Origin: Octopus vulgaris
Lineage: Eukaryota
Reading direction: 5' to 3'
DNA: 64,000 nt
Assembly: GCA_951406725.2 (NCBI GenBank)
Contig: OX597816.1
Span: 92,938,001 to 93,002,000 of the forward strand
Positions 50 through 61,630 of this stretch are shown here, in pieces; position 1 is the first letter of the stretch; each line of letters opens with the position of its first letter. The notes under the pieces were generated by a model, which searched no databases, was not told the DNA's origin, and was given only the letters and a program-made list of their open reading frames with translations. Position numbers and translations under genes: made by a program.

Positions 50-98
50 GACTGACACATCTGTTTCGGCAATTTCCTTTACCATCATCAGTAAAGCC
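50..98 (-). ncRNA. Type I hammerhead ribozyme motif (probable PLE terminus)
   Basis: Minus strand reads ggct-tta-CTGATGA-t-ggtaa-aggaaa-ttgcc-GAA-aca-gatg-tgt-C^agtc. The core is canonical, stems II and III pair and the triplet is GUC. Stem I pairs only with a 3-nt bulge. Confidence 0.6.
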
Positions 99-577
99 AG
101 CTCGGTGTTCGGCTGTTTCCGGACCTGCTTCTCTATTAGTATATATGTCTTCGTTATCCAACTTAATAGATGATTTAGTGATTTGCTAATATGTATACAC
201 AAAATTAATATAAATAGCAGGCTGCAATGTTTCACCAAAAAGGAGAATTATAAGTGTCACTAAATGTGACTAAGGTGTTAAAAAGCACCTACATTGCTAC
301 ACACACACGCACATATATACATACATATGTGTGCGTGTGTGTATGTGTGTGCACGCGCGCGTGTTTGTAAACTGGTGTTTAAAGTATCATGTACTTCTTG
401 GAAAGTTGGATAAAATGTCAGTGAAGGAGAACAGCAAAATGAGACCCACACAGAACGTCATTAATTGCCATGTTGACCCTTAGTGTTACACATTACTGAC
501 CAACAACTAAAAGGAAATGTATCAAGAAAACCAGTGTTAATGTTAGTGCGATAAAACTATTTTTACTTTATTTTTTT

Positions 578-965
578 ATATTCTTTTGCTTGTTTTAATC
601 ATTTGGCTGCGGCCTTGCTGGAGCATAGCCTTGAAGGGTTTTAGCTGAACAAATCGACCCAAGGACTTTTTTAAGCGTGGTGCTTATTCTTTCTGTCTCT
701 CTTGACGAACCGCAAAGTTACAAAGACGTAAACACACCAACACCGGTTGTCAAGCAGTGATGGGGGACAAACACACACACATACACACACACATACACAC
801 ACATATACGACGCGCTTCTTTCAGTTTCCGTCTACCAAATACACTTCCAAGGCTTTGGTCCGCCCGAGGCTGTAGTAGAAGACACTTGTGCAAGGTGCTA
901 CGCAATGAGATTGAACCCGGAAGCATGTGGCTCGAAGCAAGCTTCTTACCACACAGCCACGCATG
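578..965 (-). mobile_element. tRNA-head SINE, family A
   Basis: Same head (tggctgtgtggtaag...ggttcaatc), central CA/TA microsatellite and tail (gctccagca..ggccgcagccaaatga) as the copies at 15200, 25866, 32691 and 57237. Confidence 0.8.
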
Positions 966-2395
966 TTTTGATAAAAAGGAGGATATTTCTTTTACGCGTT
1001 AAGCATAATTTCAAGATTTTACTAAAATATAAATTTATATAAGTAGGTTCTGCTGTTATATCGGTTTGGAACATTAGAAAAAAAGCGTTTTCTTGGTTTT
1101 TATAACCAGACCTTGCATATTGCCTCTTAGAAACAAATGGATTATTTCACTTTGTGAAGGAACGAGTGATAATACCAATGAATAGGGTTGAGAGATATGT
1201 TCAATTTCAGACAGTGTTTACTTTTAACTCTGTATGTCTTACTAAAATATTAATCAATCAGACATTCAAAATCGCCTGAATTATACCTAATTTAACGCCT
1301 CCAGAAACATTCAAAGTAATACTTTCAATATCAAAAGAACTGTTTACTAAGTATTCTCCAGAAAAATATAATTTAGGCTCATTAATTATAATTAATTATT
1401 AATTTTCGTTTTATCTCCAAGTAAAAAGTAGAAAGGTCAAGGCATCCAAATTAAATCACAACCGATGATCATATTGCAGGGGAACATTACGCTCAAAATA
1501 TTCAGAATTTTTCTGGATACCCTTCATTGTTTAAGTCGTCAAGATAATAATATTCGAGGCATTAAACTAAAACTTTTTGCATTTCATTTAACAGTTTAAA
1601 GAGTCTCCTTTATTCCATTCATGATGGAGACAACGTAGGGTATAGGAATTTAGAATGGTTTGCCATGTCATGGACATATTGAACTCTCTAGTGTATATTC
1701 CATGATAAAATGCAATCAGGGCATTCTGCAATGTGATTTGGAGCTCATGAGATAGACGTGGCCTCTAAGTCGTTTAAGAGGACAGTATTTTCTTAACAAA
1801 AAACCGATTGGGACTGTGACAACCTGTCCAGTCCATGCCACCATGGAAAGCAGATCTAATGTGATGATGATAAAAATGGATGATTTTGCGAACGAAAGCC
1901 TTCGATTGTGGCTAATGAGTGAGATTAAACATATCTTGAGTCCGAATACTTGGTTCGTGAAAGTACGTATTCTTCAGTCAATTGTCATTCCTATATATTT
2001 AGTTAGAGAAAATTTTATTTTACTTAACCTTAGTACAGAATTCACTGAATGCTAACAGAACAATTTATTTAAAAAATGGTTTCATTGTTTTCTTTTTTTT
2101 TTTTCAGATATGGTTTTAAATTCTCTTCAGTTGTGTTTTGCATACGATTCGTTCAGATTTAAGCAATTATTACAGCTGCTATTAATGTTTGGATATATAT
2201 TTGTACAGAATAGAGTTTTTTATATTTTCATTAACTAACCTAACCTAACCTAATTTTCAATTTGTGGTATGTTAGGTTAGATAAGGTTAGGTTACATTAA
2301 TTTATGCGTAAAAGTATACGTTATGTGCAAAAGTATGCATCTCAGTAAGATAATTTCAGTAGGATTTTTAGCCAAATTATATATAAATAAATAAG

Positions 2396-58156: not shown

Positions 58157-59434
58157 CGAGGTGGTATCAAAATGTTTCCAGACTAGTTATATTTAATAAA
58201 AAGTAACATATTCACCTAAGTTTTAACATCAACTTCGAAATTGTCACCTTGCGCAGCAATACACCGGTTCCAGTGTTCCCTCCACATTTAGAATCTGGCC
58301 TCAAATTCGTTTTCCGTAAGCGAATCGAGGAGTTTCTGCAATTCGCTCTGGATCGCGACAACGGTGTTAAAACGACGACCTTTGAGCTGTATTTTCATTG
58401 TGAAGAAGAGTTAAATCTCGCGAATAGGGTGGGTACGGAAGCGATAGTATGTTGCTTTTGGCAAGAAACTTATGAGTGAGGAAAGCTCGGTGGCAGGGTG
58501 CATTGTCGTCGTGAAGAATCCAATTCTTCACGCTCCACAGATCCGGTAGCTTTCACCTAATATCCTCCTCAAATGCTTCAGAACATCGCAGTAGAACTCT
58601 CGATTGACGGTCTGGTTCTGGGGGACGAATTCTCGATGCACACTAACGCGGACGTCAAAAAAGACGATAAACATGCTTTTGATTGAGCTGCGGCTTTGTC
58701 GTGGCTTCTTCAGTCGTAGAGATGAAAGCTTCCTCCATTGTGGTGACTGCTGCTTCATCTCAGGGTCATGCACGTAGACCCAGTTCTCTTCACCGGTGAT
58801 GGTCTTCGACATGAAGGATGGATCATTAGCGGCACGCTAACGAATATTTTGACAAACTTCGACCCGAAGTTTTTTCTGCTCAGTGGTCAGCATGCGAGGG
58901 ACAGAAATACGCCGCGTGTTTAATTCAGACGTTAGGATTGCCTGTATGGGCCCATACGACAGCAATGTCGTTGATTGTCCTCCGACGATCTTCATGCAAA
59001 AGCTGAATTTTCTCCCCATTTCCGGGGGTGATGTTCGTGGCAGGTCTTCCAAATCGCTCATCGACTTCCAGGGACGTTCTTCCGTGTTTGAAGCGCCCAT
59101 GCTAATCGAAACATTGCGTATGACCCATTGCCATGTCGCCGTAAGCTTATGAAGCGAAGCATGCTCTTTGTCTATGTAGCAGAATTCCCAAGTTTAGCGC
59201 AAAATTTCACTTCGGGCTCTTTGCTCAAACTTTCTGTCCATGACAAAATCGCAGACCGTAGCATACACGTGATAACAAAAACACAAATTTCACAACTTGC
59301 AAAGTAAGTACAGTGATGTCACTCGCACACTGCCTCATAAAGATCACTGCTGGCGCTCACTACACACGCAACTGTGTGCTGCTATCTCTTGACGTGCAAC
59401 AGAACTAGTCCGGGAAGTATTTGATACCACCTCG
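58157..59434 (-). mobile_element. mariner-family transposon, decayed
   Basis: ~32 bp TIRs cgaggtggtatcaaa..gactagtt with TA flanks. Fragments VPRMLT.EQK..RV, ITGEENWVY.HDPE.KQQS.QW and HDDNAPCH. Confidence 0.9.
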
Positions 59435-61379
59435 TATCAACTACCACCAATATTAGAAGTAAAACTCGATTAACATATGGTGTGAAATGAGGTGTTATAG
59501 GTAGAAATTTAGAAATATAATCAAAAATTATCAACGTGTGTATTATTAAAAGGGCTAGACGTAATAACATAATTCTAATTAGATTATTTTTACAACATAA
59601 AAAATAGCTATGGTGAGAGGATTTAGGGTCATGGTCAGGTAATATTTTCAGGCTTTTATATTCACATAGAAAACGCTTACTCTTCCCTACTCTGATTAAT
59701 TTCTTTATTTTGGATTTATATTTGTGTAATAGTTCACACGCTTAGAGAATTACTAATAGAATTAAATTTGAGGCAGGTTATATTTTGGGCAATATTGACC
59801 TACCTTCACTAAGCACAATGCTAAGTGAGTACATTCATATGAATAGAACTCAGTACAGTATTGGTACTTATTGTTATCAACTAAGCATATGTTTTGTCAA
59901 TCTGTCTAATAGGAGTTGGAAAAGTATCATTACATTATAGTATGCATAAAGTACCCATTTCAAAGTAAAGTGTACAAAACCAAGTCGTTTCGATTCATGT
60001 TTTTGTGAGGAGGAAAGATAATTACTATATAACAGTTGGACTCGACCCCACGTTTCACTGCAAGGAAATTACAAGTTGTTATGTGTGCAAACACCTTTTC
60101 TGTCCAATCAACGGCCTTTGATTACGTGCTAGTCTCATGGTATAACTAGGACTTTCTGTTAACAGAGCCAACAAATACAGCTCCTTTCAGCGCGAAAAGA
60201 GCCGAATGGATTTAGTCCTTGATAGAGTTCGCTCTGGACTCATATCTTTTCTCACGGCTACATGCTCAACCCGGCGCGATATAGCTGAAGAAACAAACTG
60301 CGGAAACACAGCAACAAAAGTAAGCATTCATGTGTAAAAATTAGTCTAAATGTTGAATTTCTGGTGAAGATCGTCTGCGCTTGTAATATACTCTGTTTCA
60401 TATAAAATTTACTCTTCTTGTATTACATTAACACATTCTGTATTAATGTAGCAATAAATAATACCTATATACTTACATGCCTTTCTTCATGACCACGCTA
60501 CAACTGTAATAGTTAATTCTGGCAAAAAGGCAAGGAAAACAAGGGAAAGAATTTGGGAAAATAAATAAATTAAAATGAATTAAAATAAAATTTAGTAGAA
60601 AGGGAGTCTGATTTTTAGTAGTAGTACAGTAGTAATTTTAGGCACCTTGGAGGATTTTCTAAACGTTGATGGAAGATCTTAAAGTACCTAGGTAGCGAGG
60701 CTGTTGGATTTCAGTTAATAAACATTTTGTGGTGTGATAGATTAAATAAATAGCTGTTGAAAACTAACTAGGCATGCTTGCTTTACGTAAAAATCCTGGT
60801 AAAGTCGGCGCTAACATACGTAGTGCATATTCTCTAGTTTAACTACCTCTTAATATATTCGCGTGTGGAAACAATACCTAAGTTGTGAACACAATAGCTA
60901 ACTTGCTAGATAGACAGACAGATAAATAGTTGAGAGTATGGACAAGGTGCCGGATAAGTTTTTTGGTAGGCGATGTTTCCTCTCTTTTTAATAATACGTA
61001 TCTGACCAAGACCATTATCTCTCTCTGCTTCACTTTACTTAGAGCAGTCTAGGTAAGTGGAAAAGATTTGTCTCATCCACATCATTATAGAAAGCAGAAG
61101 TAAGTACTGGTCCTATGAATTACAACGTTTAACAAAGCATTGTAGGAATCTATTGGAATGATAGTGAAATATGGTGTCACTGGTTACTACTCTTTAAACA
61201 ATATAGTGAGTTATATATATATATATATATATATATATATATATATATATATATATATGTATGTATGTATGTATGTATGTATGTATGTATCATTTGAAGC
61301 TCTCTCTCTCTCTATATATATATATATATATATATATATATATATATATATATATATATATATATATATATATATATAT

Positions 61380-61630
61380 CGATTTTTATTTGGTTTGCAA
61401 GATTCTTTATGTGAATTCGTGTGCTGAAGCATATTTTATTGTGCTTGGGGAGAGTCATTCTCTTTTAGTGCCGTATTACTTTAACACATTCACCGGTCTA
61501 ATTTCCACTCATTTACTTATTTATTTTACTAAAATTTTCGTAAAAATAAATAAGTAAATGAGACGAAATCAGACCGGTGAGTGTATTAAATTAATAAGGC
61601 ACTAAAAGAATGACTCTCTGCAGACAGAAT
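61380..61630. mobile_element. Fold-back copy of the repeat seen at 26855-27415
   Basis: Arms ~61450-61529 and 61540-61619, set between (TA)n and (CA)n. Confidence 0.7.

Follow-up and report, generated by a model that had tools for sequence, protein, structure and literature searches.

How has a single stretch of the Octopus vulgaris genome come to hold hammerhead ribozyme motifs of several unrelated sequence families? The stretch (64,000 nucleotides of contig OX597816.1, assembly GCA_951406725.2; below, the window) is about 34% G+C and rich in repeats, with long (TA)n arrays, short interspersed element (SINE)-like repeats, a full-length long interspersed element (LINE) and Tc1/mariner fragments. 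A first-pass annotation, made from the letters alone, had proposed that at least six distinct Penelope-like element (PLE) or retrozyme-like families had seeded it with self-cleaving RNA motifs. That number holds: self-BLAST and alignment distinguish seven to nine families, with six intact type I hammerhead motifs in five insertions. The motifs are likely ends of PLEs or of their short derivatives, and one high-copy family carries a G3-C8 core pair. All counts of proteins, repeats and motifs given below refer to the 64-kb window.

Hammerhead folds against shuffled sequence and Rfam

The hammerhead folds at six sites, 45-96(-), 2847-2894(+), 16716-16804(-), 18561-18649(+), 26889-26925(+) and 39899-39949(+), are complete, real and far above chance. 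They were searched for with a type I descriptor that consists of stem I, the box N3-UGA-N-N8-A with a Watson-Crick 3-8 pair, an optional extra base and stem II, followed by GAAA, stem III (at least one pair required), UH and the closing strand of stem I; it was applied to the two strands of the window and, as controls, to 200 dinucleotide shuffles, of which 100 were block-wise and 100 global. The descriptors were composed after the sites had been seen; the margins between real and shuffled sequence are large nonetheless. The strict tier with a C3-G8 core finds 45-96(-) and 2847-2894(+), with no match in any of the 200 shuffles. Any Watson-Crick 3-8 pair adds 39899-39949(+) (three real matches, shuffle mean 0.02), a short stem I adds 26889-26925(+) (three, against 0.02-0.03 in shuffles), and a closing mismatch adds the pair 16716-16804(-) and 18561-18649(+) (five, against 0.14-0.15 and at most 2). 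The loosest tier has five matches against 0.12-0.17, one of which (2956-3047) is probably chance. A scored search that permitted one core change, with 40 shuffles as control, returned four matches with a score of at least 9 against a mean of 0.23 (maximum 2), plus one extra at chance level. A relaxed descriptor set against dinucleotide shuffles, the check proposed in the first pass, thus gives hits far above the shuffles. Two hammerhead-like descriptor matches, 2956-3047(+) and 36640-36689(-), were at chance level and were dropped.

Several features that the descriptors did not demand recur among the motifs. Stem III is fully or nearly palindromic in all six intact motifs, and a self-complementary A15.1-U16.1 segment of 4-14 nt is present at every intact and damaged site. 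An extra base at 9/10.1 together with a G10.1-C11.1 pair is found at sites 45, 11691, 26889 and 39899; site 2847 has no extra base and a G.U instead, and sites 16716 and 18561 have U.U. The 3-8 pair is C-G at 45, 2847, 16716, 18561 and 53707, U-A at 11691 and 26889 and G-C at 39899. The three sites set apart as variants in the first pass (11691, 26889 and 39900) have 3-8 pairs other than C-G, two with U3-A8 and one with G3-C8, and the first of them has no stem I.

Rfam is nearly blind to these motifs: the best hit at any site, Hammerhead_HH9 at site 2847, has 17.6 bits (gathering threshold 52, E 0.062) and an alignment in which the outer stem I pairs are marked as broken, and the hammerhead models have no match at sites 1 (45-96), 4 and 8. 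In the Rfam scan of the whole window there is no hammerhead among the 150 listed of 166 matches; those listed are microsatellite-driven miRNA noise.

Families and insertion anatomy

Each strong hammerhead match occupies a corresponding position close to one end of a repeat, and most of these repeats are inverted. Self-BLAST finds six head-to-head inverted loci (11606-11870, 16680-18685, 39770-40026, 50796-51059, 57509-57577 and 61436-61632), in five of which one arm is clearly longer. The excess is about 77 nt in each of the two family 3 insertions; elsewhere it amounts to 65 nt (39.7 kb), about 53 nt (61.4 kb) and about 12 nt (51.06 kb). Single-arm copies are present too, at 26889 and 53528.

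The family 1 hammerhead, annotated at 50-98(-) in the first pass, is present with corrected coordinates of 45-96(-): it has a C3-G8 pair, an extra U at 9/10.1, 5-bp stems I and II, a GUC triplet and a 14-nt imperfect palindrome as stem III, with the predicted cut between 50 and 49. Next to the core, stem I is formed by 96-92 and 49-45, and it continues into a long distal helix; pairing 50-98 would leave a 3-nt bulge. Family 2 (2847-2894(+)) looks canonical, with a C3-G8 pair, a 7-bp stem I, a 4-bp stem II with a GUAA loop, an AUA triplet and an 11-nt palindromic stem III, and sits in an island of about 370 nt within a 2.2-kb (TA)n array. Its loop II (2862-2871(+)) reads GUAAGU, similar to a 5' splice site, which may just reflect the common GNRA loop; PLE pseudo-long terminal repeats (pseudo-LTRs) can contain introns.

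Family 3 forms a head-to-head palindrome of about 2 kb (16680-18762) with outer arms of 589 nt that are 96% identical. The hammerheads at 16716-16804(-) and 18561-18649(+), listed separately in the first pass, are both intact and are the two arms of this one insertion: both have a C3-G8 pair, a U10.1.U11.1 closing pair, a 58-nt stem II region and an 8-nt palindromic stem III. The right arm has an extra end of about 77 nt, and both ends of the palindrome pass into (TA)n. A second, independent insertion of the family at 57432-57583 has no hammerhead core and shares both end points with the first, including the longer end of about 77 nt, and likewise ends in (TA)n; its + arm begins at 57536/57537, within 1 nt of the predicted cut site (nt 1.1). 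In the centre of the large palindrome (17268-18097) the two arms remain similar nearly up to the midpoint, with a spacer that does not match; a short stretch duplicated internally at about 17860-17930 has a CUGAUGA box and no hammerhead.

The U3-A8 pair is found in two families. The family 5 element at 26889-27414(+) starts with a minimal hammerhead (26889-26925) that has no loop 3, a 4-nt palindrome, a UUU triplet and a 3-bp stem I; it is split by a SINE-like repeat at 26978-27308. This repeat, on the + strand, has an apparent 12-bp target-site duplication and further copies at 52207-52491 and 55560-55629. An inverted insertion of the same family occupies 61383-61632, flanked by (TA)n and (CA)n: its - arm begins at C11.1 (61540) with a longer end of about 53 nt, and its + arm begins 0-3 nt past the predicted cut. 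The family 4 insertion (11606-11870) is head-to-head with arms of 74% identity, and its hammerhead core at 11691-11724(-) has a 6-bp stem II and a self-complementary stem III; it scores 8.0 in the scored search, a value that shuffles reach 0.4 times per window. Between the two U3-A8 motifs the first two pairs of stem II are identical, and two differing pairs would be compensatory if the families were related, a relationship that a patchy alignment only suggests.

Family 6 (39706-40028) is again head-to-head, with arms of 92% identity and (TA)n on both sides. Its hammerhead at 39899-39949(+) has G3 at 39906 and C8 at 39911, an extra G, a UUU triplet, a 7-bp stem I, a 5-bp stem II and a 6-nt palindromic stem III, with the predicted cut after 39942; the left arm starts within the core and bears the 65-nt longer end.

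The remaining motifs are damaged. In family 7, the copy at 53528-53770(-) has a full-length but broken C3-G8 hammerhead (53707-53749), in which the catalytic G12 is replaced by U at 53723 with an extra A before that position, and the inverted insertion at 50796-51071 retains the 3' two-thirds at 50963-50992(-), with GAAA intact and G16.2 changed to C. Stem III differs between the 53707 and 50965 copies by one double-sided compensatory change and one G.U/G-C change that keep the palindrome, and has one broken pair in the 50.9-kb copy. Family 8 has only one copy in the window, at 32930-33057(-): it is 5'-truncated and starts inside stem II, with the 3' half of a minimal hammerhead at 33044-33057 and no 5' half seen. 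In a candidate at 47981-48040(+), one extra nucleotide interrupts the first core box; this motif has a 2-bp stem I plus a distal helix, a bulged stem II and a palindromic stem III, and passed no descriptor or scored search. The three halves noticed in the first pass near 33035, 50965 and 61530 are real 3' halves at truncation points (33044-33057(-), 50963-50992(-) and 61529-61540(-)), the latter two belonging to the families of 53707 and 26889. Among the sites it had given as folds or variants, six are complete; 53707 is broken, 11691 has no stem I and 47981 has its core insertion.

The first pass had also placed the motifs mostly inside microsatellites; 'next to' describes them better. A TA/CA run is present within 260 nt downstream of the cut at 7 of 10 loci, compared with a background of 23% (p ~0.002), and absent from this distance at 11691, 26889 and 50965; the flank of site 1 cannot be judged, as it lies at the window edge. 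No two copies of any family stand in tandem on one strand in the window, so the dimer that hammerheads with short stem III need cannot form in cis here.

The high-copy G3-C8 family

The G3-C8 pair at 39899 could be damage in one copy, and public sequencing runs argue otherwise. The 39.7-40.0-kb stretch has 0.83-1.00 of its words present in the best public runs of four organisms (A-D). Contigs from these runs were aligned to 39700-40035 at 80% likeness, with a 5% share for listed variants: 14,194 contigs aligned from run X3 (organism B), 7,198 from X12 (organism D) and 1,698 from X11 (organism A; its RNA label is a guess only). Summed contig depths are not copy numbers and were not used as such. 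A raw-read run, X22, had no reads aligned to the region, and the rows X19 and X20, with their small shares, were given no weight as evidence. Across 39881-39915, a span that takes in the whole first core box with G3 and C8, alternative letters stay below 5% in all three runs at deep coverage, and a loose-end consensus of 23 contigs from the left arm has G3 again. Thus, G3-C8 is the state of a high-copy family rather than damage in a single copy.

The contigs also give some indication of the unit. Many leave the reference just before 39898 (241, 144 and 24 contigs), with about 15 shared bases followed by mixed sequence, and 9 of the 15 joints shown are inverted pieces of variable length joined to 39888-39899 (101 further joints, of one or two contigs each, and 667 loose-end rows were not shown). 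AT-rich or (TA)n loose ends are found at 39706/39711. From these loose ends and joints, family 6 looks like a non-coding unit of about 210 nt that starts just upstream of the hammerhead and is often inserted head-to-head. The exact stem II pattern of the motif has no match in metagenome contigs.

In the literature that we searched we found no natural G3-C8 hammerhead; coverage was incomplete, and key papers, figures or supplements may list one. On the evidence of the sequences, the high-copy family is probably a new natural core variant. If so, it completes the natural covariation of the 3-8 core pair, it indicates that what is a partly active mutant in the laboratory is good enough for a successful element, and it means that ribozyme censuses with fixed C3-G8 or U3-A8 cores undercount.

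Origin, cleavage and known systems

The minimal-hammerhead anatomy of the folds, the inverted and 5'-truncated insertions and the microsatellite flanks together point to PLEs: the motifs are likely the hammerhead-bearing ends (pseudo-LTRs) of seven to nine PLE families, or short non-coding derivatives of these, a membership that we infer from insertion anatomy. In such a scheme, a PLE protein with reverse transcriptase and GIY-YIG domains, encoded elsewhere in the genome, would nick AT-rich or microsatellite DNA; reverse transcription would have two alternative start sites, some 40-250 nt downstream of the hammerhead; it would break off early, in many cases within or close to the structured ribozyme; and head-to-head joining of a second copy in inverted orientation would leave one arm longer. 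By analogy with described elements, the source elements would be transcribed in tandem and the hammerhead would cleave weakly, as a stem III dimer or with help from a protein; a Watson-Crick 3-8 pair would be needed, which the families supply as C-G, U-A or G-C.

Several observations weigh against this account. No remnant of a PLE reverse transcriptase or GIY-YIG domain was found with Pfam in any of 235 short frames or in the six frames of the palindrome at 16680-18685. The scan covered 235 of the 255 low-complexity-filtered frames of at least 55 aa, the other 20 lying inside the LINE at 6196-10159, whose two main open reading frames (ORFs) were scanned separately; the only domains that these scans returned are LINE reverse transcriptase and endonuclease (APE) and Tc1/mariner, with no GIY-YIG. 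The most protein-like frame of the palindrome is without a homologue among longer proteins, which is weak evidence; short truncated or non-autonomous copies would not contain a PLE ORF anyway. The longer ends measure 12-77 nt, while the tail in print has 30-40 bp. Eight of the ten folds have z-scores above -2, so folding alone is not significant for most motifs, z-scores being uninformative for motifs this short; the 39899 motif has -2.62, and the fold of 1-150(-) around site 45 has -3.14, yet both the minimum free energy (MFE) structure and the centroid sequester the core, and an inactive fold is thus preferred there. In family 6, the variation of stem II and its loop across copies is C>T and G>A at 5-14%, mostly in CpG: this is decay and not compensatory change, with no sign of selection on the genomic copies, so that the stem covariation expected in the first pass is seen in stem III of family 7 and not here. 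Also in family 6, the best-supported loose ends show no accumulation of 5' ends at the cut site, an argument against ends defined by cleavage in this family. Finally, the motifs at 45 and 2847 have a more canonical look and might each be a solo retrozyme unit.

This last point leads to the alternative that survives best: some or all of the motifs would be solo units of non-LTR retrozymes, spread via circular RNA. It fits 45-96 and 2847-2894 best: site 2847, which lacks the extra base and has stems I and II of 7 and 4 bp, is the only site that Rfam HH9 aligns, and site 45 has a long distal stem I. Family 6, too, seems to begin about 15 nt upstream of stem I as a short non-coding unit, and a preprint (10.64898/2026.07.22.740005) counts monomers as common. 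Non-LTR retrozymes (PMC7229834 and the same preprint) resemble our families in that they are short, do not code for protein, carry type I hammerheads and are likely mobilized by PLE proteins; they differ in their tandem units and in their mostly canonical hammerheads with contacts between loops 1 and 2. No tandem repeat of a hammerhead-bearing unit is present in the window and no tandem junction is among the 15 joints shown for family 6, the head-to-head inversions and longer ends are features of PLE insertion, and the HH9 alignment of site 2847 is broken in outer stem I. We therefore regard a retrozyme origin as unlikely; according to the argument of the preprint, retrozymes derive from PLEs in the first place, and the two readings then overlap. 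Of the 'PLE or retrozyme-like' origin given in the first pass, the minimal hammerheads and the PLE insertion anatomy stand, and neither an ORF with reverse transcriptase plus GIY-YIG nor a tandem array is present in the window.

It is far less probable that the inverted loci are miniature inverted-repeat transposable elements (MITEs) or fold-back DNA transposons, with the hammerhead-like folds as by-products of the palindromes. All six loci are inverted repeats beside TA runs, and Tc1/mariner fragments are present in the window, but fixed, equal terminal inverted repeats were not found: the arms are unequal, the junctions vary between copies and single-arm copies exist. Moreover, the hammerhead helices lie inside one arm and leave the long palindrome unused, and core boxes at the correct spacing are not produced by inverted repeats; this explanation is largely refuted. 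Chance look-alikes in AT-rich DNA, an idea encouraged by descriptors made after viewing the sites and by the 0.4-1.5 chance matches per window in the loose tiers of the scored search, are refuted for the six intact motifs by two strict matches against none in 200 shuffles, five against 0.15 in the wider tier and the unrequired palindromic stem III. Equally improbable is that the host has co-opted at least one intact copy for cutting an intron or a long non-coding RNA: the catalytic fold of sites 2847 and 39899 lies within 1.4-3.8 kcal/mol of the MFE, but the window has no identified host gene, nearby copies are decaying without restraint and motifs with short stem III need a partner copy.

Returning to the PLE reading, most copies in the window are likely inert relics: each is either solitary or faces its partner on the other strand, a number of them are broken, and the fold favoured at site 45 is an inactive one. 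The claim that self-cleaving motifs were seeded here was overstated, as roughly every second listed site is either broken or only a half. A trace of cleavage may nevertheless be preserved in the insertions. Of four partner arms without a hammerhead, which were not chosen for having one, two begin at or near the predicted cut (those at 57.5 and 61.5 kb) and the other two about 15 and about 100 nt downstream. By a rough estimate, this would happen by chance a few times in 100; it is a weak hint at cleavage in vivo and a lead only, and later deletion within the palindrome could produce the same arm starts. A genome-wide excess of 5' ends on the cut site, if found, would be a cheap DNA record of cleavage, of which the window has two suggestive cases. 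The most far-reaching version, which we offer tentatively and consider somewhat more apt to fail than to hold, joins these strands: a mini-element of about 210 nt with thousands of copies in several related species would carry an unreported natural G3-C8 core, missed by CUGANGA/UUGANAA searches, in a genome that also has C-G and U-A families, and the cut-site insertions would record in vivo cleavage by PLE hammerheads.

The surroundings of the motifs are mostly other repeats. A full-length, young-looking LINE at 6196-10160(+) has an ORF1 of about 310 aa with a weak CCCH zinc finger and an ORF2 of 1039 aa with APE and reverse transcriptase domains; it ends in (AATC)n and lies between two long (TA)n arrays, after an AT-rich minisatellite (5040-6167). 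Degraded LINE-type reverse transcriptase fragments are found at 22827-24183(-), with an RVT_1 match at 22830-23189, and, judged from translations alone, at 44765-45791 and 54445-55274(+). A Tc1-like element at 46034-47578 has 164-bp terminal inverted repeats (90%) and a broken transposase, and mariner-type fragments are at 19544-19876 and 58528-59193. An abundant SINE-like repeat is present in three tandem copies with a period of 183 at 13899-14478 and again at 15619-15814, 38171-38386, 44008-44103 and 50433-50497. In a G+C-richer stretch at 36394-37154(+), two adjacent open frames of 103 and 148 aa, rich in Thr/Pro and Gln and with no Pfam match, are possibly host exons or a degraded element.

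The cohort as a whole is what would be expected from published data; only its G3-C8 part may be new. Cervera and De la Pena (2014; PMC4209133) described metazoan genomes with thousands of dispersed minimal PLE hammerheads of many families. The motifs in our window resemble theirs in being type I with a palindromic helix III that is short or missing, an additional base at 9/10.1, G10.1-C11.1 and a U3-A8 variant, in belonging to many unrelated families of mostly single dispersed motifs and in forming pairs on opposite strands (100-700 bp apart in their data); the dispersed families, the opposite-strand pairs and U3-A8 are thus already in print. They differ in the G3-C8 pair of one family and in the long stem II and U.U closing pair of family 3. 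For cephalopods, 235 Rfam hammerhead-1 loci are listed for the giant squid (PMC6962438), and a repeat annotation of O. vulgaris (PMC13282606) has 31 recently active Penelope-like families, with no mention of ribozymes in its accessible text; octopus hammerheads were not found in the literature searched, with incomplete coverage.

The insertion anatomy likewise has close parallels. Craig et al. (2021; PMC8557442) report PLE insertions that are highly 5'-truncated, often with an adjacent inverted copy and a tail of 30-40 bp at one end, and a bias for (TA)n/(CA)n microsatellites; Frangieh et al. (2024; PMC11167929) relate this tail to the use of two reverse transcription start sites downstream of the hammerhead. 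Truncation, inverted copy, optional longer end and microsatellite targets are all seen in our window, with longer ends of a wider size range. In the latter study, uncut RNA is the main template, most insertions keep the hammerhead uncut, a further similarity to our window, and no RNA reads were seen to end at the cut site in the anole, in contrast to the two of four partner arms that begin 0-3 nt from the cut here. Weak, dimeric or protein-assisted cleavage has been discussed (PMC4209133, PMC11167929; reviewed in PMC6765202), and the in vivo role of PLE hammerheads has been described as still a mystery (PMC7761336).

Most core variants of the window also occur in nature elsewhere: Perreault et al. 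(2011; PMC3088659) list U3-A8, a U10.1.U11.1 closing mismatch and an insertion after A6 as natural, matching sites 26889/11691, 16716/18561 and 47981, respectively. The accessible part of that paper does not include G3-C8 in its natural variants, and PMC2920678, PMC11014351 and PMC10085705, as far as their accessible text goes, have nothing further on it. Of the 56 motifs in Fig. S3 of PMC4209133, 53 begin with C, three with U and none with G, and the descriptors of that study have C3-G8 or U3-A8 cores. In PMC8495972 and PMC3884650, G3-C8 appears, in the text accessible, as a laboratory double mutant with partial activity only, and in PMC11167929 the double mutant C3G/G8C partly restores cleavage of a PLE hammerhead: what is a rescue mutant of the laboratory there is the natural, family-wide state of the 39.9-kb family here.

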